Shown: one piece after another, positions 5,554 through 63,208 of the stretch | How positions within the stretch are numbered: position 1 is the first letter of the stretch | Layout: every line of letters begins with the position of its first letter | Source: Opitutales bacterium | Lineage (GTDB): Bacteria > Verrucomicrobiota > Verrucomicrobiia > Opitutales > PNEW01 | Length of the DNA stretch: 64,000 nt | Direction of reading: 5' to 3' | Assembly: GCA_965197745.1 (NCBI GenBank) | Contig: CBDANS010000006.1 | Location: 585,721 to 649,720, forward strand | The notes under the pieces: generated by a model | What the model was told of the DNA's origin: nothing | The model's input: only the letters and a program-made list of their open reading frames with translations | Databases searched by the model: none | Position numbers and translations under genes: made by a program

Positions 5554-6103
5554 AAGAAATGAACTTTATCCTGGGGGCTTTAGGGTTTCAGGTAAAGGGT
5601 ATTACTATCAGTTGCTGTGGTACCGGATATTATTGCACGTGGTTCAGCGCGATGTCGGTTATCTCCTTATTGTCATTGCGAGGCCACTAATATTAAATTA
5701 GCGGACGTGATTAGCCTCGTCCCGTTCCCCGGACGCGACGGAGCGCGTCCCTCCATTTTCTTCACCCTTAATATAGACATTGTATCTCAAAAAAAGATCA
5801 CCCTTCTGGAGGGCCACGCGTCGTCGTGGCCGTGGCGATCTAGAGCTATGTCGGCTTCTCCTCGGTACGATTGCTGATTGAATAAGAGAATGGCGGATGT
5901 CGGTTATCTCCATATTGTCATTGCGAGTCCTGCAACCGCAGAACGAAGCAATCCAGGGGATCGCCGGTTACGTGTTGATATTCGCCTGGATTGCTTCGTC
6001 GCAACGCTCCTCGCAATGACATGTGAGAAAGCAGACTTTACCGCATACGCGCATTTCCGTGTATTCGCTTATCCCCTTTTGTCTTCTTCATATTGCAAGC
6101 TGT
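5554..6103. repeat. Repeat-filled spacer 3
   Basis: Direct repeat GCG(A/G)ATGTCGGTTATCTCC(T/A)TATTGTCATTGCGAG at ~5650-5683 and ~5893-5927. Hairpin+CCTCCA at 5731-5755. TGGAGG+hairpin at 5807-5831. Full long-hairpin element at 5916-6021. ORFs 5617..5877, 5698..5913 and 5878..6117 are repeat translations (the ...DCFVATLLAMT type). Confidence 0.85.
5916..6021. repeat. Long-hairpin element copy B (GTCATTGCGAG ... CTCGCAATGAC)
   Basis: Outer arms TGTCATTGCGAG / CTCGCAATGACA. Inner arms ACGAAGCAATCCAGG / CCTGGATTGCTTCGT. Central hairpin at 5953-5989 with loop GCCGGTTACGTGTTGAT. Confidence 0.85.
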
Positions 6104-10135: not shown

Positions 10136-10273
10136 TGTCATTGCGAGGATCCTGCAACTGCAGGAGACGCGGCAATCCAGGCGAATGCCGGATACGTGTT
10201 GATATTCGCCTGGAATGTAAGATGTCAGGCTACTGCCCTCGGTAGCCACGTCGCAACGCTCCTCGCAATGACA
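10136..10273. repeat. Long-hairpin element copy C
   Basis: TGTCATTGCGAGG...CCTCGCAATGACA. Internal palindrome CCTGCAACTGCAGG. Central hairpin at 10177-10213 (CCAGGCGAAT-GCCGGATACGTGTTGAT-ATTCGCCTGG). GGCTAC..GTAGCC sub-hairpin. Confidence 0.85.
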
Positions 10274-10574
10274 GTTGAGAAAAAAGTCTATTTCTGCTTT
10301 ACCGCTTACACACATTACCGCATATCCACATTCACCCTTACTCCCTTTTACCCATATCTACATTACCTGGAGGGCCATGCTCCGTCATGGCCGTTAGGTG
10401 TTCGGTAAATAACGAAAAATACACGGACGCGATCAGCCGTCGCCTCGAAGATGCGCGAGGACTATGGCCGACAGGCACTGCGCGTCCCTCCATATTTTAC
10501 ATCCCCCCGTGCACGCTTCTACGCGTTCACCCATTCACGCATAATCGCATTCACCCTTTCAACTTTCTTTCTAT

Positions 10575-10716
10575 TGTCATTGCGAGGATCCTGCAACTGC
10601 AGGAGACGCGGCTACCGAGCGCAGCGACATCTTCCATTCCAGGCGAATGCCGGTTACGTGTTGATATTCGCCTGGATTGCTTCGTCTCCCGCAGTTGCGG
10701 GATCCTCGCAATGACA
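10575..10716. repeat. Long-hairpin element copy D
   Basis: Same ends as copy C. CCTGCAACTGCAGG pairs with CCCGCAGTTGCGGG. Central hairpin at 10639-10675 with loop GCCGGTTACGTGTTGAT. Confidence 0.85.
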
Positions 10717-11771: not shown

Positions 11772-12250
11772 TTATTTAATGGGTAGATTTGTAGAGGTTA
11801 AACTAACAAACTGAATTTATTATTTTAATTGGAAAGGGTCAGCCTCTGCATGGAAGATCTTAGTGAGAAAGAAGTCTTTTATGTTAGCTCGAGACCTGCA
11901 ACAGCGGCGCTAAGCTACCGAGTGCAGTAGCCCACCTGTCGTCCATAGCCACGTCGCAACGCTCCTCGCAATGACAAGTGAGAAAAAAGTCTATTTCTGC
12001 TTTACCGCTTACACACATTACCGCATATCCACATTCACCCTTACTCCCTTTTACCCATATCCACTTTACCTGGAGGACCATGCTCCGTCATGGCCGTTAG
12101 GTGTTCGGTAAAGAACGGAAAATACACGGACGCGACGACGCGCGTCCCTCCATTATTTACATTCCCGCATTTCCACTTGTTCGCTTACACCCGTAACCGT
12201 GTTCCAGCTTTACCGCTTACACGCATTTTCGCGTATTCGCTTATCCCCTA
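11772..12250. repeat. Repeat-filled spacer 5
   Basis: Partial long-hairpin element at ~11890-11976. A 188-nt segment at 11948-12135 is ~96% identical to 10245-10432. Hairpin units at 12071-12095 and 12128-12152. ORF 11884..12081 (..CHCEERCDVA..) is spurious. Confidence 0.9.
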
Positions 12251-39039: not shown

Positions 39040-39723
39040 TTAATTAAAAGCATCGTATACGGGAAGTTCAAAGTCAGATGGAAGCCACAGTGAATGCAAT
39101 CGATCAAGAATTTGTCTTGCAGCTTCACCCAAAGCCTGCATTTCACCACTCTGTTCAGTAGCTTTTAAGTATGATTCAAGCCATGCGACAAGCTGTTGTC
39201 GCAGTGTAGATGGGCCACGCTGATGATCGTTTTCAAGTGCGACTCTCAATCGCACAATAACATGAAAAATATGCCAATGGGAAAATGCTTCCACCATTGA
39301 TCTGTTGAAGATCTCATCGTCGGCAATATTTGGGCAATATTCAGATAACTGATCACGATATGCCTGATCCATGCTTGTTACCACATCACCGGGCACGCCT
39401 TTCATACAACCCCAGGTCATCCGCGCGGGTAATCCTTCCCGAAGACAGTGACGGAAGCCACCGCAATCAAAGTCGAACATCCTGAATTTACCTCCTTTTC
39501 GGATCATGCCACCCAATCCGTTCTGATCTCCTTGAGACAATGCGAGGAAGGTATTTGGGTATTCTTCGATCGTGTGGGTGACACGGGCAATCTCGTCGTC
39601 AATTCCACTTGGTGGATCGAATCCCAATTCACGGCACCTTTCGCGATACTTTACAATGACATTTTCAAGCTCTCCCGATTCGATTTTCTTGCAGCGGGCA
39701 TCGTCCCAGGGGTGAGTATTGAT
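39040..39723 (-). pseudogene. 5'-truncated kinase-like (APH-fold, atypical SQGD loop) gene abutting IS3
   Basis: The frame is open up to the IS3 boundary (..INTHPWDDARCKKIESGELENVIVKYRERCRELGFDPP..). Only the C-lobe is present (LSQGDQNG..., MFDFDCGG). No N-lobe is found on the other side of the IS. Confidence 0.6.
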
Positions 39724-40106
39724 TGGACCCCGTTTTTCGTACCAATTATTAAGTGAGAGAGTTCCCGGGTATTAATGGTTTTAGGATTGATGTATATGAG
39801 AGATCTTGGCGAAGTGAGGGCGTAGCCCGAACGCGGCCAAGATCTGAAAGGAATGTGACAAACTCTTGTGGGCTTTTAAAGCCTAAACGACTGTGGGGAT
39901 GATCATGGTTATAGGTCTGGCGCCATTGTTCGATTACAACTTGTGCTTCAGCCACGCTGAGCAACACTTCACGGTTCAAACACTCATCGCGTAAGCGGTT
40001 GTGAAACGACTCGATGAAACCGTTTTGCCAGGGACTGCCCGGATCGATATATATCGCCTTGATCTTTTTGTCGGACAACGACTGCTGCACTTGATGAGCA
40101 ATGAAT

Positions 40107-40138
40107 GGCTTCGCATGTCGTCGCTTCGCTCCTCGGAA
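40107..40138 (-). repeat. 32-nt insertion in IS3 orfB derived from the long-hairpin-element arm
   Basis: The coding strand reads GGCAGTG[TTCCGAGGAGCGAAGCGACGACATGCGAAGCC]ATTCATT. Removing it (and restoring one A) gives SDNGSEFIAHQ. On the plus strand, GTCGCTTCGCTCCTCGGAA matches the arm GTCGCAACGCTCCTCGCAA. Confidence 0.7.
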
Positions 40139-40266
40139 CACTGCCGTTGTCACTACGGATATAGCTGGGAGCTCCCTCCTTTTCAATGGCCTCGCTAAGC
40201 ACAGAGAGGACATCCGATGAGGGGAGTTCACGAGCGACCCGGATATCCAGACATTCACGCGTATAT

Positions 40267-40309
40267 GTCTTCGCTTCGCTTGAGTGTCGTCGCTTTCAGC
40301 TCCTCGGTA
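40267..40309 (-). repeat. 43-nt insertion in IS3 orfB, same family as 40107-40138
   Basis: The coding strand reads CTGATCGATG[TACCGAGGAGCTGAAAGCGACGACACTCAAGCGAAGCGAAGAC]ATATACG. It shares CCGAGGAGC..AAGCGACGACA..GCGAAGC with the 32-nt insert and carries an in-frame TGA. Confidence 0.7.
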
Positions 40310-40738
40310 CATCGATCAGAGTCATCATCTTTAATGGACCGCCATGGTCTGTGCGATCATGGACAAAGTCCCAGGACCAAAGGTGATTGCGACCGGTTGC
40401 TTTAGTAGGCGACCCCGTAGAGACCCCTTGACGGTGTCTACGCTTTTTAGGTGGCTTTACCTGCAACCCTTCTGAACGTCGTACCGCCTGAACAAACTTC
40501 CTGTTTGTTGTCCAGCCTTCCTTTACGAGCAAGGCACGGATGCGCCGGTAACCGTAGCAGGGATGTTCCCAGGACAGGGTTACAATCCGCTCGGCCAACC
40601 GCTGAGCTTTCTTACTGGCCTGCTTGGGCTGGTAGCTGAAAGTTGACCAACTGAGGCTGAGGTAGGAACAAGCCCTTCGCAACGAGCACAGCCCTCTCTC
40701 AGCCGCATCTTTTACTACTCGCTTCTTCTGCTTGGGGC

Positions 40739-41005
40739 TCACCACTTTTTTGACAGCGTTTCCTCCATTACCTGATTCTTAAGCATTTGATCAGCGAGCA
40801 TCTTCTTCAACTCGGTGTTTTCTTTTTCCAGCTCTTTAAATCGCTTCGCATCGGCTAGTTCCAAATTGCCATACTTTTTACCCCAGCGATAGAAGGTCTG
40901 TTCACTCACGTTGTTGCCTCGGCAGATTTCCTCTACCGTTTTTCCGGTATCGGCTTGCCGCAGTATTGCGATGATCTGTTCTGTTGTGTATCTTTTTCTT
41001 TTCAT
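40739..41005 (-). CDS. IS3 OrfA (HTH transposase subunit)
   Basis: MKRKRYTTEQIIAILRQADTGKTVEEICRGNNVSEQTFYRWGKKYG plus a leucine-zipper-like tail. Confidence 0.85.
   Translation of the reverse strand: MKRKRYTTEQIIAILRQADTGKTVEEICRGNNVSEQTFYRWGKKYGNLELADAKRFKELEKENTELKKMLADQMLKNQVMEETLSKKW
40745..40751 (-). promoter_or_regulatory. Programmed -1 ribosomal frameshift heptamer A AAA AAG at the orfA/orfB overlap
   Basis: The minus strand reads TCA AAA AAG TGG TGA. The -1 frame continues KKVVSPKQKK (orfB). Confidence 0.7.
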
Positions 41006-41134
41006 GAGGTTATCTGTTTATCCCGATAACCTCTCTCTGTTAATGATACCATTTTTGGGGGTCACTCCATCCTAGGCAACGGCCCTAACTATTTTGATTC
41101 GGCCTTATTTAATGTCCATCCGACGTATGGAAAA

Positions 41135-41701: not shown

Positions 41702-43274
41702 GAATGGCGTTAAGATAAGGGATAGAATGAGTGCAATAGATGCTTGTACAGGGACCGTTGGAGAGCTACCCTAACGAGCATGCAAAAACAAAACTTAACT
41801 CGTTATTTTCCAGGATTTAATCAGGTCCTGTTCGGTCGTGCTCCCCGAACAGCCCTTGCACAGATGGAGGGTAAGCTGGTAGAAATACGGCGGTCAAGTC
41901 TTTCCGAGCTATCGGATATCTTCGGGCAGTGGGTGCCGCAAAAGTATTTACACCGGAAGCCTCGAGGGGCTAACAGCCGGCGGAGATTGTTCAGCCAAAA
42001 CGTGACCTTCTGGGCATTTTTGTTCCAAGTGCTCTCACCACGGACTGCCTGCCGGGAAGTGGTGCGCAAGCTCCAGAGCTATTGCAGCATGAAGGGGCTG
42101 AAGTTGGCTAAAGGAACGGCCTCGGCCTACTGTCAGGCGAGGCAACGGCTGTTGGTGCAAGACCTGCACGGGATCCATGAAGCGATCAGTGAAGAGGTGG
42201 CCGGGAGAGTGACCGACGATCAACGGTGGAAAGGTCACGAGGTAAAAGTGGTCGACGGTACGGGTATCGCCACCGCCGATACGCCGTGCTTGCAGAGGTG
42301 TTACCCACAGCCTTCGCAGCAACGAAGCGGCTGCGGCTTTCCGGTGATGAAGCTGGTGGGCTGTTTTTCTTTAGCCAGTGGGGCGCTTTTACACTGGATG
42401 GAGTCCTCACTAAGGCATCATGACAGTGTGCTGTTGCGGGGCATGATCGGATTTTTTCAAAAGGGTGATGTGGTCCTTGCCGACCGGGGATTTTGCTCTT
42501 ACCTCAATATTGCCCTGCTTAAAGGCCGCGGTGCTGAAGCGGTCATGCGTTTGCATCAGCAACGAAGAAGCGACTTTCGTCAGGGCAGGTCCTTGGGTAG
42601 GTATGACCGGCTGATCATGTGGAAGAAGCCGCAAAATGTCTTCGGCTTCAGTCGCGAGCAGTGGCGGCAAATCCCTGATGAGATCCCCGTACGGCTGGTG
42701 AAGATTTTCATTTTCATCAAAGGTTTCCGCGCCCATAGCGTAGACCTCGTGACTACCTTGAGCGATCCTCACCAATACTCCCACCACGATCTCGGAGAAT
42801 TATACTATCGGCGCTGGGCAGTGGAGCTTTACTTTCGCCACATCAAAACCACCATGGGGATGGAGATCCTGCGCTCTCGCTCGGTCGCTCTCGTGCGCAA
42901 AGAGATTGCGATGTTTGCCATCGCCTACAATCTCTCATCCGCGCTCTTTTGCAGCAAGCTGCCAGTGCCTTCCACCGCGACCTCTCCCGGCTAAGCTTCA
43001 AGGGGGCTGTTGACACCCTCCGCCAATATCAAAGTGCGCTCGCGGCCACCCGGTTTAATCCCAGAGCCCAACGATCTGTCATTGACGAGATGATACACCT
43101 CATTGCCCTCGAATCGGTCCCCCTACGTCCCTTCCGATACGAACCAAGAGTCCTCAAACGTAGACCTATACCTTTCCAACGATTGACTCATCCACGAGCC
43201 ATGATGACCGTCTCTGCTTCACGAAAAAACAAAGGCTTTTATCATCCTAAACCACCCTTATCTTAACGCCATTC
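41702..43274 (+). mobile_element. IS4-family insertion sequence with 11-bp target-site duplication
   Basis: 20-bp terminal IRs: GAATGGCGTTAAGATAAGGG (41702-41721) and its complement (43255-43274). Flanking direct repeat AGGCCTGACCC at 41691-41701 and 43275-43285. Confidence 0.85.
41744..43266 (+). pseudogene. IS4 DDE transposase, frameshifted near the C-terminus
   Basis: VVDGTGIATADT, VLADRGFCSY, YYRRWAVELYFRHIKTTMGME. The frame switches at ~42931-42936 (AATCTCTCATCC) from ..IAYNL to IRALLQQAASAFHRDLSRLSFKGAVDTLRQY... (ORF 42949..43266). Confidence 0.75.
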
Positions 43275-54180: not shown

Positions 54181-57100
54181 TCACTCGATTGTTATCTCTT
54201 CCACCGTAACGGTTAATTCCTCACCATCGGCGTTTACAAATGTGGCGACGATGCTTTGCGTTGGTTGTGCCGTTAGGTCAGACTTAAAATTGTTCTGCGA
54301 AATCAGGGTATCGAATCCAGGTGCTGTCGATCCGCTCGGTGCGATCACGATCGAGGCACCGTTAGACTGAGAAAGATCACCCCCCGTGATGCGCATCCCG
54401 GGATTACCCGCGGGTATGGTAAAGGACCCATCACTAAATAAAAGGTAGGGGACTGCATCGCCACTGGCATCGATGTCACCTACGGTTAACCGCACGGCTA
54501 TCGGGATTCCACTGGCATCAAATCCAATCTTACCTGAACTGCCACTAAATACCGCGTTCGAGAGTTGTACGCCACCCAAGCCTGTAGAGTTGATCACCTC
54601 TACGAGCGTGACATCAGCTTCAGCATCATAGACCTGTCCCTCGGGGAACAATGCCTGGTTCACGGCATTGATCCTTCCCACCGTGAAGATACTGAAGAAG
54701 GTACTCGCGTCGGCTTCTTCGATCAACACGCTCGGTTTGCCTGTAACATACATTACCTCCTGGTTGTAGCGAGGCGGCGGGGCGGGGGGCAGGTAGGTGT
54801 CCGGATCTAATGTAATCGTAAATGTACCGCTGCCCGAAAATTCTACCTGTACAATGTCCTCGTCTTCATCCATGAACGAGACCCGTGTGATCTGCCCTGG
54901 CTTGGCCTGAAGTCGGATGGACTCCCCGGTTAACAAGACCTGGTCGAACACGTTCCCGTTAGGATGCTGGATGTCCTCACCGGCAATATCTCCCGAGCCG
55001 TCAAGCACGAGGGGTAGAGGCGGAGCCGATACGGTAATCACCGCGGTATCACTATTGGTGCTCCCTCCAGCATTGGTTACCTCTACCCAGAAGTTGGTGC
55101 TATGGGTAAGAGCACTGATGGTGAAAGTGTTGCTCGTAGCACCGGCGATGGGACTGGCGGTATTACCGCTGTTGCCGGTATACCATTGGTAGGTGAGATC
55201 ATCGCCAATTGCTGTCACTGATAGGACAACCGCGGTACCGGACTCTACTTCCTGGCTCGCAGGTTGGGATGTGATCGAGGGAGTACTGGGACCTTCCCCG
55301 TTAATAGAATCGGTAGTGAGACTGAAGACATAAGCTGAGCCGGAATCCTCACCGTTGTCATCGTCTAACCACGCTCCGACTACCACGGTGTCACCGCTTA
55401 TATCTACCGACCCAAAAGAGTTAAAACGCGCGCCATCGCTGGCTAATAGCTTAGTTACTTGGCCCCAGTTGTCAGCACCGCCTGTGTTGCGCTCAAAAAT
55501 ATAAGCTGAACCGGAATCAGTTCCGTTGTCATTGTCTCCGGTAGCTCCAACCACCACCGAGTCGCCGCTGATTTCGACCCACCCCCCAAAAATGTCACCC
55601 TCTCCGCCATCGATGGCAAGCAGTTTGGCAACCTGACCCCAGTTGTCAGCACCGCCCGCGTTTCGTTCAAAAATGTAGGCAGAGCCGGAATCAGTTCCAT
55701 TGTCATCGTCCAAATCTGCGCCCACGATCAAAGTATCTCCGCTGATCACAACATGATTGCCAAACACGTCTTCTATTGCGCTGTCATTTGCAGTTAGTTT
55801 TGTAATCTGTCCCCAATTGTTATCACCCCCTAAATCGCGTTCAAATACGTAAGCAGAGCCGGAATCGAGGCCGTTGTCATCGTCATAGAGAGCACCTACT
55901 ACTGCCGTGTTGCCGCTGATCGCTACTTCCCAGCCAAATAAGTCACCTTCTGCGCCATCGCTGGCCAATAGCTTAGCGACTTGGCCCCAATTATCGATCC
56001 CCCCTGGTCGCGTTCAAAAATGTAAGCCGAGCCAGAATCACTGCCTTTGTCATCGTTACTGTCAGCCCCGACTACTAACGTATTCCCGCTGATCGCAGTG
56101 GATTTACCAAACAAGTCACCCGGCGCACCGTCACTGGCAGTTAATTTGGTTAATTCAAGGTCAACTATATTTTCTAATATCTCGATCACCAGGTTGTAGG
56201 AAGTGCGAGTCGCTCCATTAAAACCTAAGATACGGAGGAAGTAGATCTCACTCGTCCCCACAACCAGAGATATGTGCTCGTTGTCAGTATCAGTCCCCGA
56301 AAAAGTTACCTCGTTTAAGTCCCCATCGTAAAGAAGTAGATCTAAGTCACCTTTTTCCTGGCTGAACAAGATGCTTACATTTAGCCTACCCTTTGCGCTT
56401 GTTGTGAGGCGGTAGTAATCTTCCTCACCATGAACATGAATCGACAGATCATTCTCTGTATATTCATTAATTATCCCCAGTTCTGTCGCTGTTTCAAAGC
56501 TGTTATTGGGTTCGAATTGATCACCTGAACCTACTAAGTTTACACCAATATCTCCCAATATTGCCAAATCCAGATCTGATATTTTTTCACGTCTATCAGA
56601 GAAGGCAAATTGAGCCATTAAATCAGAAAGTAGAACTTCACCAGGACGAGGTGATGAATTCCCAACGTGAGAAATAGATCCAAAAGTTAAAGGAACCGGT
56701 CCACCGTAGACCATCATTGCCATAGGCCCCGTAAAAAAGAAATTTGTCCCATCAAAGTTTATTAACTCGTCATATGTCGTTATTATGTTGTGAGCAGGGA
56801 GTTCGCCAGTGGTTTCATTTATAAAAACTGCAATTCCAAATATATGCCCAAACTCATGCAAGATAGTCGAATAAGCATCAAATGAGCCAAACGGAATGCT
56901 ATCCGTGCGTTCAGTAGGATTTGGATCAAACCATAATTCTCCATTGGTTAATGAATTTATACTAATTGTAATAAACCCGTCTGGTCTAGTTTCATTAAGG
57001 TCAATCCCAGTTCTTATTTCAAAGATCGAATTTGGTTCAACATTGATACGCGTGCCATCATTGCGAACAAAAGCGCTATTGGCAGCACCACCTGTTGCTA

Positions 57101-57377
57101 ACAGGTCTGTCTCAAATTTATTGAATGCAACTTCAATTTCAATTGAGGGTTCCCCTTCAACCTCAAAATACTGAACCCAATCATTCGCAGCAGCTAGAGT
57201 ATGGGATTCGATAACTGAATAAAATGCAGAAAATTCTGCTCCCGGATCATTAAAGGAGACCGAGAATGTTACCTGTCCTTTAGCATTTTGAGGAAATGAA
57301 ATTAATAAGAAAGCTAATGAGCAGATAAAAAGAATACCGGCTAAATGGGCTTTTTTATTATTCTGACAACACCCCAT
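54181..57377 (-). pseudogene. ~1060-aa secreted zinc-metalloprotease / PPC / FG-GAP-repeat / Ig-like protein with a homopolymer frameshift
   Basis: ORF 55923..57377 has a signal peptide, HEFGHIFG (HExxH), a PPC-like GDQFEPNNSFETATEL..DYYRL, and the first FG-GAP unit ..SGSAYIFERDQGG. ORF 54181..55968 continues in another frame as IDNWGQVAKLLASDGAEGD..., with 5 more SGSAY(I/V)FER units. The switch is in the G6 run (plus-strand C6 at 55999-56004). Confidence 0.75.
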
Positions 57378-62814: not shown

Positions 62815-63208
62815 ATGCGGTAACGCGGGGATGCGTTAATGTGTCAATGTGTGTATGTGTAAACGCGGAAATGCTGAGGTGAAATAATGGTGGGATGCGA
62901 CGGAGCGCGTTTCATCTATTCATTACCGAACACCTAGCGGCTATGATCTGCCTTTGTCCCGTACCGCAGTCGCGGAAGGACTACGGCATGACAGGCATCG
63001 CATGGCCCTCCATTATTTTTTATTTATAATATTTCTTTGGTATATAAAATAAAAGATTAAGAAGCGTGCTTGGGACGGCCCGCTCCACCACTTATTTATA
63101 TTTATACTATGGTGAGGTGGAACGCGGTGTCCCTACCGCGTTATCGGTTATTCATTAATATATGTAGAGATGCGTGAATGCGTGAATGTTGTAACGCCAT
63201 TCGTGCGG
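62815..63208. repeat. Repeat-filled spacer 7
   Basis: GTRAAYG-type tract at 62815-62887. Degenerate TGGTGGGATGCGACGGAGCGCG unit. The long-form hairpin unit at 62925-63012 is the reverse complement of 9905-9990. Family-X modules at 63064-63089 and 63115-63142. GCGTGAATGCGTGAATG at ~63168-63190. Confidence 0.85.

Follow-up and report, generated by a model that had tools for sequence, protein, structure and literature searches.

The window analysed here, a stretch of 64,000 nucleotides from contig CBDANS010000006.1 of an Opitutales bacterium, contains an IS3-family insertion sequence (IS) on its minus strand whose transposase gene, orfB, is interrupted at two sites by short segments of 43 and 33 nt, here called mini-inserts 1 and 2 (Table 1). 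Both segments are insertions and not native orfB sequence, and both belong to one family of very small elements that carry no gene. IS3-family elements have imperfect terminal inverted repeats (5'-TG...CA-3') and a target duplication of 3-5 bp. The present IS has terminal inverted repeats of this kind (TGGAGTGACCCC... / ...GGGGTCCAATCA), and its ends are fixed by 11 aligned copies whose sequences diverge exactly outside them; a 4-bp target duplication was found in 3 of 24 copies (ATTT, TCAT, GAGC) and was absent or unclear in the others. The gene layout is also that of the family, with a helix-turn-helix orfA (Pfam HTH_Tnp_1) overlapping a DDE/rve orfB, the parts of which match HTH_21, rve and rve_3, and an A6G-type slippery heptamer in the overlap that we take to be the usual IS3 -1 frameshift site. 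The length of the copies varies with their inserts, from 1278 nt (no insert) through 1308-1309 nt (insert 2 only) to 1350 nt (both).

Mini-insert 1 brings an in-frame TGA (40296-40298), and minus-strand frame 0 reads ...MMTLID-VPRS* before the same frame resumes at YTRECL; its boundary is ambiguous by 1 nt, as the element may end in A at 40266. Downstream of mini-insert 2, the OrfB reading continues in the +1 frame (FIAHQ...NGFIESF). Neither mini-insert duplicates its target in orfB. A previous sequence-only reading of this DNA had delimited the first segment as we do, whereas the second, which it had placed at 40107-40138 with 32 nt, is one nucleotide longer. It had also put both segments within a GAA codon followed by T, which is right for site 1 and wrong for site 2, where the empty sites have GAG.

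Table 1. Position of the IS3-family element, its inserts and gene parts, and related repeats in the window.
Feature	Position	Strand	Details
IS3-family insertion sequence	39720..41069	-	1350 nt including both inserts; ends TGGAGTGACCCCC... / ...GGGGTCCAATCA
Mini-insert 1	40267..40309	-	43 nt, TACCGAGGAGCTGAAAGCGACGACACTCAAGCGAAGCGAAGAC; replaces one A of GAT-GAA-TAT, net +42
Mini-insert 2	40106..40138	-	33 nt, TTCCGAGGAGCGAAGCGACGACATGCGAAGCCA; replaces AG of AGT-GAG-TTC, net +31, frameshift
orfA	40739..41005	-	Intact, 88 aa, HTH_Tnp_1; from the list of open reading frames; identical protein on 17 contigs
Slippery heptamer A AAA AAG	40745..40751	-	In the orfA/orfB overlap; read from the sequence
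orfB, N-terminal part	40310..40744	-	HTH_21, first catalytic Asp in WSWDFV, ends ...MMTLID; translation, colinear with intact relatives
orfB, middle part	40139..40266	-	YTRECL...YIRSDNGS, second catalytic Asp; translation and relatives
orfB, C-terminal part	39749..40105	-	FIAHQ...PWQNGFIESF with catalytic Glu, to stop; +1 frame; translation and relatives
Spacer long-hairpin repeat	5916..6021		TGTCATTGCGAG...CTCGCAATGACA; arm TTGCGAGGAGCGTTGCGACGA core-like
Further spacer hairpin repeats	612-684, 10136-10273, 10575-10716, ~11870-11976 (degenerate)		
24-nt family member	10613..10636	+	TACCGAGCGCAGCGACATCTTCCA; nested in a hairpin arm; site empty in sister repeat 10136-10273
~30-nt family member	10215..10244	-	TACCGAGGGCAGTAGCCTGACATCTTACA; nested in the other arm of repeat 10136-10273
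Related fragment	11916..11934	+	TACCGAGTGCAGTAGCCC; within degenerate hairpin repeat ~11870-11976
8-nt tandem repeat runs	10297-10357, 12000-12060, 1851-1900, 62815-62872		

That both segments are insertions follows from three lines of evidence: (i) a near-isogenic empty site, (ii) the occurrence of all four presence/absence states, and (iii) intact relatives. An exact-protein look-up with orfA returned ten further copies of the IS beyond the one in the window (loci are denoted L and proteins P). One IS (L214), which differs from the window copy by 13 substitutions in 1308 nt (99.0% identity), has insert 2 and is empty at site 1, where it reads GATCGATG-A-ATATACG. Site 1 is also empty in L001-L004, L062, L057 and L028, and site 2 is empty in 20 related IS copies (L001-L003 and 17 others), always as CAGTG-AG-TTC; thus, L001-L003 are without both inserts and L004 without insert 1 only. 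Among 34 aligned related copies, 10 have both inserts, 17 the first only, 4 the second only and 3 neither, and the related copies lacking one, the other or both are about 90% identical. Copies with both inserts that are 99.6-99.9% identical to the window IS occupy different places on one 3.1-Mb contig (L005-L010). Lastly, OrfB rebuilt by taking the segments out and restoring one Glu codon per site has 306 aa and is 92-94% identical, over 100% of its length, to intact rve/HTH_21 proteins of 306-307 aa, which read LIDEYTR and DNGSEF at sites 1 and 2. The proposal that orfB becomes readable as one protein once the two segments are removed is therefore borne out, and the empty sites set the boundaries of the segments and their target. 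An intact copy of the exact window IS was not found; the best intact OrfB is 94% identical, and a protein with 98% identity (P0027) still contains insert 2.

The IS copy in the window cannot make OrfAB, and thus no transposase, because insert 1 puts a TGA in orfB and insert 2 shifts the frame. Presumably, this doubly broken IS has been copied by the transposase of related intact copies, and intact relatives with the same IS ends exist in related genomes. The 17 insert-1-only copies (L022 and 16 sisters, Opitutales metagenome-assembled genome [MAG] CBDCNV01) additionally carry a divergent insert of about 25 nt, TTCACGAGCGCAAGCGAGAAGGCCTG, at ELEKE^NTE, which frameshifts orfA, and two of them have 4-bp target duplications. 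Since such orfA-broken copies are numerous, readings that depend on introns or bypassing are not needed to account for spread. As a separate observation, L001-L004 share an early in-frame TAG in orfB (TTGCGAAGG -> TTTTAGAGG); a different defect, therefore, has also been propagated across several loci and samples.

The two segments align with each other better than 5000 of 5000 shuffles, in line with the similarity noted by the sequence-only reading, as T-W-CCGAGGAGC(T)GAA(A)GCGACGACA followed by a GCGAAGC-containing tail that ends in CA. More generally, the 5' end of family members is a conserved core, T-W-CCGAGGAGCGAAGCGACGACA; a tail follows that is particular to the lineage and in many cases has repeated GCGAAGC or a small GC hairpin, and the last two bases are CA. 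Sizes run from 21 nt to ~75 nt. The previously proposed likeness to one arm of the spacer hairpins (TTGCGAGGAGCGTTGCGACGA) amounts to 16 matches in 19 positions. When up to 3 mismatches to this 19-mer were allowed, the window contained only three arm copies and one IS3 insert, against 0 expected from 100 shuffles, and a looser pattern found four members against 0.06 expected, namely the two IS inserts and two nested in hairpin arms. Fixed differences separate the hairpin arms from the insert core (GCGAGG vs CCGAGG; GTTGCGACGAAG vs GAAGCGACGACA). The nested members have empty counterparts within the window itself: the sister repeat of the 24-nt member reads GACGCGGC|AATCC, and the site of the ~30-nt member is empty in repeats 5916-6021 and 10575-10716. 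Pattern scans of the window found no further copy within 12.3-61.4 kb, as had been claimed, whereas three nested members in the spacer hairpins had been overlooked. Degenerate 8-nt tandem repeats (ACCGCATA/TCCACATT; ATGCGTGA on the other strand) adjoin the spacer hairpin repeats. Neither the window nor 18 loci gave a match to an Rfam family other than tRNAs and a signal recognition particle RNA, and the window contains no tRNA or tmRNA.

Collection scans for the exact core confirmed that the motif occurs elsewhere, with at least 78 genome loci (one genome per species), at least 120 metagenome loci and 3 viral loci, which collapse to 119 distinct flank contexts. The genome hosts are mostly Opitutales and Coraliomargaritaceae, and also include Woeseiaceae, Campylobacterales/Sulfurovum and Treponemataceae/spirochaetes; the cultured strain Cerasicoccus arenae KCTC 12870 has a copy. 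A few matches that lie in GC-rich coding sequence (L036, L039, L045) appear fortuitous. The target rule can be written as G^A-R(-T): the element (T-W-CCGAG...C-A) replaces A-R, and the next target base follows. Wherever an empty counterpart exists, the base before the element is G, rarely C, and G stands three bases before the core in 71 of the 119 contexts, with mostly TT or TA as the two bases between. Counted as ending in A, the element replaces two bases, and one base therefore appears lost if the final A is assigned to the target. This is how the sequence-only reading had described the two IS3 sites; its statement that nothing is duplicated there stands, and the one-base loss is better put as replacement of A-R by an element ending in A.

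Insertions of this kind are found in several classes of conserved sequence. At least five sites are used in IS3 transposases (LD^EY, DNG(S/P)^EF, PW^QNG with an offset variant in L069, RD^ECL and one in orfA), and the filled/empty pairs at sites 3 (PW^QNG) and 4 (RD^ECL) fit the target rule as well. In tRNA genes, T-loops (GTTCG^AATCC) have been entered in both orientations, which fits the palindromic TTCGAA, and D-loops and one anticodon loop are also targets. In L019, one copy of a palindromic repeat has its GGAA loop (CACGGACAGG^AA^TGTCCGTG) filled, and another copy 40 nt away has it empty; a nested target inside other family members, AGCGAG^AA^TAACAA, is occupied in L021 and L122 but not in L012, L023 or L071. 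Some members are read in frame in protein-coding genes (L142 and a phage open reading frame in L090 and L091), and the insert of type 3 is translated within full-length OrfB proteins. In the viral contigs L090 and L091, the 51-nt member (VPRSEATTRPGAERTGP) lies in frame in an apparently intact phage reading frame with a HAD-like N-terminus.

Further contexts add to the range of targets. About 36 distinct spirochaete-type loci (e.g., L018, L083, L094, L117, L138) consist of a ~110-nt hairpin repeat, CTAACATTTGCTTAACCTG...CAGGTTGAAGCAGTTGTTAG, whose inner stem varies with matching changes in the two arms (GATTCTTG/CAAGAATC, GAAAATTG/CAATTTTC, CACTTTTTG/CAAAAAGTG); in this repeat, the 21-nt core is always at the apex, and the element is the core alone. 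In L124 (tRNA-Arg CCG) and L158 (tRNA-Ser GCU), otherwise complete tRNA genes hold a member of 56-72 nt in the T-loop, the latter gene within a Pro-Ser-His-[Ser]-Arg-Lys-Gly-Met tRNA cluster. ARAGORN no longer calls these two interrupted genes; they must be pseudogenes or else tRNAs with an intervening sequence that has gone unrecognised. Two metagenome contigs (L126, L167) contain tandem arrays with a 36-nt period, the unit being GGTTCACA + core + GGCCGAA, in a tRNA-like T-arm; these arrays probably arose by slippage on AAGG microhomology.

The recurrence of inserts at the same codons is not simple inheritance. Insert 2 was found in 16 distinct flank contexts from several IS3 lineages. Of its bases, the 12 left free by the scan vary at ~1% of positions, against an identity of 49-94% in the flanks, and the sequence directly beside the insert is lineage-specific on both sides. 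The type-2 element also occurs in unrelated targets, namely palindromic repeat loops in other MAGs (L019, L040, L043, L047). Another IS3 lineage (L069) shares insert 1 and its site, and the 43-nt type-3 insert occupies the same PW^QNG site, with 2 differences in 43 nt, in an IS3 relative with 58% protein identity whose site 2 is empty. At L089, a full-length OrfB of 313 aa reads CAGTG+TTCCGAGGAGCGAAGCG+AGTG+AGTTC, in which a copy truncated to 17 nt is followed by a 4-nt target duplication that restores the GAG codon. As this arrangement is not derivable from the 33-nt insert by deletion, the same G has been hit at least twice. These results support the view, already put forward by the sequence-only reading, of a very small non-autonomous element that inserts, with a preference for certain sites, into another mobile element.

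The junctions are polar, as the core-side junction is constant and the far junction variable. Outcomes on the far side range from the 2-base replacement to the direct duplication of 4, 16, 25, 35, 63 or 66 nt of upstream flank, the first copy of which always ends exactly 2 nt before the core; tails differ between lineages, and truncated copies are reduced to 17 nt (L089) or to the core alone (spirochaetes). At tRNA loci, a truncated tRNA and its promoter or terminator flank precede the element, after which come the full flank and tRNA, giving direct duplications of 16-66 nt (D-loop: L020, L050, L118, L178, L073; anticodon loop: L059; T-loop: L048, L013). An intact gene is thereby restored next to the truncated one (L020/L050, L073, L059, L048, L013), which is what selection would keep if the insert were harmful. 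In L048, L013 and L114, the element is followed by a short stretch of its flank in inverted orientation and so comes to lie at a hairpin apex; these fold-backs hint at fold-back synthesis, a possible origin of the hairpin repeats with the core at their apex.

The mini-inserts also act as recombination substrates. Chimeric IS copies are joined at insert 2, with different lineages up- and downstream (L051, L057), and OrfB variants deleted exactly between two mini-inserts (DNGSVPRSEAT|PQRAIARITNG) occur among P0036, P0092, P0021 and P0035, the deletions of P0036 and P0092 running between inserts 2 and 3.

On balance, the two segments probably represent separate insertions by two members of this gene-less family, and the mechanism we favour is nick-primed copying. 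A nick or break after G would yield a 3' end, and this end would prime the copying of a short free template, starting from the end complementary to the core. The template, if it is RNA, would be a molecule with the 3' end GCUCCUCGG(A/U)A-3'; the copying enzyme could be a reverse transcriptase or another template-jumping polymerase. Imprecise rejoining of the new strand to the target would then leave the core-side junction constant while tails vary or are cut short, with results from a 2-nt loss to flank duplications of 4-66 nt. We infer this mechanism from the junctions, and prefer copying because a transposase acting on two ends would not predict the combination of a constant end with truncations, losses and variable duplications; the behaviour appears like that of elements that move by target-primed reverse transcription. 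A more specific version, which we put forward tentatively as possible and rather less than probable, is that the family is a bacterial counterpart of SINEs at the lower size limit, in which a polymerase with a dedicated short template, whether a reverse transcriptase or an enzyme akin to telomerase, would add the 21-nt core at G^AR and the break would be resealed imprecisely. The tails would confer or accompany the preference for IS3 catalytic motifs, tRNA loops and repeat loops, and the elements might "home" across phyla, disabling other mobile elements as a by-product.

Several points weigh against the favoured explanation as a whole. Because the collection scans needed the exact core, diverged members were invisible to them, and the conservation of the core is partly circular. 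Each site in the Opitutales IS copies tends to carry its own insert type, although random insertion from a common pool predicts otherwise; this could be attributed either to tails tied to an extended target preference or to recombination and spread between copies. Neighbouring repeat copies, rather than insertion, may account for some flank duplications (L019, L114). Neither a de novo event nor a template molecule or an enzyme was observed. A Pfam scan of 20 window open reading frames (ORFs) found no reverse transcriptase, HUH or TnpB gene, the genes present encoding an IS4-type DDE transposase, kinases and hydrolases. Among 958 clustered ORFs within 1.2 kb of the core, only IS3 transposases recur, orthologous loci aside; no mobilising gene of the kind that the sequence-only reading had suggested looking for (Y1/RAYT, TnpB) emerged from either set. 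As for a role of the target sequence itself, local alignment of five insert/site pairs with their flanks on both strands gave similarity or complementarity no better than shuffles (the lowest p value, 0.017, is one among 20 tests), and the idea of guidance by homology was dropped at this chance level.

Single-strand transposition by an HUH enzyme (Y1, RAYT or Y2 rolling-circle), in which G^A would be nicked in single-stranded DNA and a short single-stranded element inserted, is unlikely. It had been suggested from the missing duplication and the short target, and it would suit the many targets in foldable loops, such as the tRNA T-, D- and anticodon loops, the spirochaete hairpin apices and the GGAA loop of the palindromic repeat (z = -3.8), as well as the lack of target duplication in simple cases; IS91-type elements, moreover, are also polar. 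GCGAAGC, present in the core and tails, forms an unusually stable DNA mini-hairpin according to a review (PMC13037366). However, shuffled sequences have more predicted structure than the two IS3 inserts, whichever strand is folded (z = +1.1 to +1.5), the surroundings of site 1 are not foldable, and the rebuilt empty IS3 sites do not lie reliably in hairpin loops. A hairpin role was rejected on these grounds, since only the palindromic-repeat target lies reliably in a loop. Moreover, IS200/IS605 elements use a tetra- or pentanucleotide target, whereas only one flank base, G, is conserved here; target bases are lost or long flanks duplicated, truncated copies exist, and no HUH gene was found among the scanned window ORFs or the core neighbours (64 kb and flanks of 4-14 kb inspected). 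Within this scope the suggestion finds no support, although a nick in single-stranded loops is conceivable.

Somewhat more doubtful is the view that, after a few ancient insertions, the element ceased to insert and was passed on solely through descent, IS transposition and recombination or gene conversion between IS copies. Inserts that are ~95-100% identical where the flanks are only 49-75%, or the proteins 58%, identical argue against it, as do the lineage-specific flanks right beside the insert on both sides, the independent event at the same base in L089, the type-2 element in unrelated repeat loops, and the nested and tRNA insertions in other phyla. It does account for the tendency of each IS site to one insert type, and the IS lineages are indeed mosaic, recombining at or near the inserts (L051, L057, P0023, P0036/P0092), while insert-bearing copies clearly multiply by IS transposition.

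The sequence-only reading had alternatively proposed an excision footprint. On this view, full-length hairpin repeats of ~110 nt would once have occupied the sites and been excised imprecisely or deleted in part. Bacteria do not maintain long palindromes stably, the core resembles a spacer-hairpin arm at 16 of 19 positions, and the inserts are arm-like and unpaired. Nevertheless, this origin is improbable: no full hairpin exists at any site among the 34 related ISs or in other IS lineages, identical footprints in independent, diverged hosts are not expected from random deletion, and the arms and the insert core differ at fixed positions.

It is less probable again that the inserts are tolerated intervening sequences, with RNA processing or ribosomal bypassing keeping the IS autonomous. 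Broken copies do multiply, inserts of types 1 and 3 add exactly 42 nt, and complete tRNA genes with a T-loop member exist (L124, L158). Candidate take-off and landing codons can also be named, since insert 1 places an AGC codon directly before TGA with an in-frame AGC 7 codons on, and insert 2 offers CCG (frame 0) and CCA (downstream frame); by our estimate, such matches are within chance, at ~15% per site. The 17 multiplying copies that are also frameshifted in orfA indicate that trans-mobilisation occurs anyway, and UGA read-through of insert 1 as a means of keeping the IS active was rejected because the abundant insert-1-only copies have this second frameshift. Most tRNA cases, furthermore, are partial copies beside an intact gene, as if the insert were harmful, and neither an Rfam family nor a structure of ribozyme size was found in the window or the 18 loci. 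An assembly or sequencing artefact, such as adapter-like sequence, is refuted for practical purposes: although the closest copies come from long-read metagenome assemblies, the core is present in hundreds of contigs from independent short- and long-read projects and in cultured Cerasicoccus arenae KCTC 12870, with consistent presence/absence at defined sites.

If the family moves in the way suggested by its junctions, its members would be among the smallest insertion elements known, and their sharing by distant phyla would imply a conserved, transferable mobilising activity. The family strikes the most conserved sequences on offer, tRNA loops and the DDE-motif codons of IS3 transposases; consequently, other transposons are inactivated, tRNAs partially duplicated, recombination between IS lineages seeded and peptide inserts occasionally translated. 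For annotation, it accounts for a class of "frameshifted" IS3 transposases and for odd peptide stretches (VPRSEATT, LPSEATPQRAIARIT). The copy in cultured Cerasicoccus arenae KCTC 12870 makes the question open to experiment.

Around the IS3 element, the window holds an IS4-type DDE transposase gene (DDE_Tnp_1; 41744-42994, plus strand) at a distance of 675 nt, a pairing repeated in L005 and L010, and several APH-family kinase genes also lie in this region. Farther away, five tandem repeats with a period of ~174 nt (55325-56099) lie within large minus-strand ORFs (54181-57377) and are presumably part of a repetitive surface protein.

Among known small repeats, palindrome-based elements are alike in being gene-less and without target duplication, with an affinity for hairpin contexts. 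IS200/IS605 palindrome-associated elements (PATEs) and the REP/REPIN-RAYT systems have hairpins at both ends or palindromic pairs, REPs are extragenic, and both insert beside a conserved target of 4-5 nt without loss of bases (PMC3116915, PMC6006769). The IS3 inserts, by contrast, are unstructured single arms inside genes, with loss of target. They have no subterminal hairpins (some longer family members have one 3' hairpin), one conserved G (71 of 119 contexts) in place of a longer target, and two bases replaced or 4-66 nt duplicated; as for REPs and REPINs, they are intragenic, unpaired and non-palindromic. Neither do they resemble miniature inverted-repeat transposable elements, as their ends (T-W-CCGAG... 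/ ...CA) form no inverted repeat and the IS3 sites show no duplication, or self-splicing introns and other structured RNAs, given the absence of an Rfam match and lengths of only 33 and 43 nt.

Two other systems share the interruption of coding sequence. The Rickettsia palindromic elements, reportedly described by Ogata et al. in 2000, are said to be selfish repeats in coding genes that are sometimes translated in frame, as are the type-3 insert in OrfB and the member in the phage ORF (L090, L091); those elements are palindromes of 100-150 bp in one genus, whereas members here are non-palindromic, 21 nt to ~75 nt long and spread across phyla. The mitochondrial byps of Magnusiomyces, which Lang et al. 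are said to have reported in 2014, are reportedly skipped by the ribosome between matched codons, and these, like T4 gene 60, parallel the present inserts as GC-rich sequences of 27-55 nt that interrupt coding sequence and are related to intergenic GC clusters. In our case, however, the candidate codon pairs (AGC...AGC; CCG...CCA) are within chance, and copies broken in orfA still multiply.

With regard to the pattern of junctions, the closest parallel is eukaryotic. In R2, LINE and SINE elements, one end is constant and the other truncated, and the change at the target extends from a small deletion (2 bp in R2) to variable duplications. The present family shares the constant and variable ends and this range of target changes, and such elements likewise include short non-autonomous copies and can be site-specific. 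The differences are that it is ten to a hundred times smaller, bacterial, devoid of a poly-A or other such tail and linked to no reverse transcriptase here.

The small dispersed repeats (SDRs) of Nostoc and other cyanobacteria, which Elhai et al. are said to have described in 2008 (Genome Res 18:1484), a paper cited in PMC3116915, are reportedly very small mobile repeats. Like them, the family has members of tens of nucleotides (21 nt to ~75 nt), is gene-less and apparently mobile, with filled/empty pairs and copies nested in other repeats, hairpin or MITE-like elements, and lacks classical terminal inverted repeats or a fixed target duplication. SDRs are also embedded in short tandem repeats, and here the hairpin repeats adjoin tandem repeats with an 8-nt period. 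The sequence and the hosts are different, however (here Verrucomicrobiota, Gammaproteobacteria, Campylobacterota and Spirochaetota), and the conserved 5' core with a variable tail, the G^AR target with a 2-nt replacement, and the recurrent insertion in transposase catalytic motifs and tRNA loops set the present family apart. No description of the core or its behaviour was found in the literature, the SDRs being the nearest published kind known to us. As far as can be told, the family is thus apparently undescribed, and its polar build, defined target and cross-phylum range are new.

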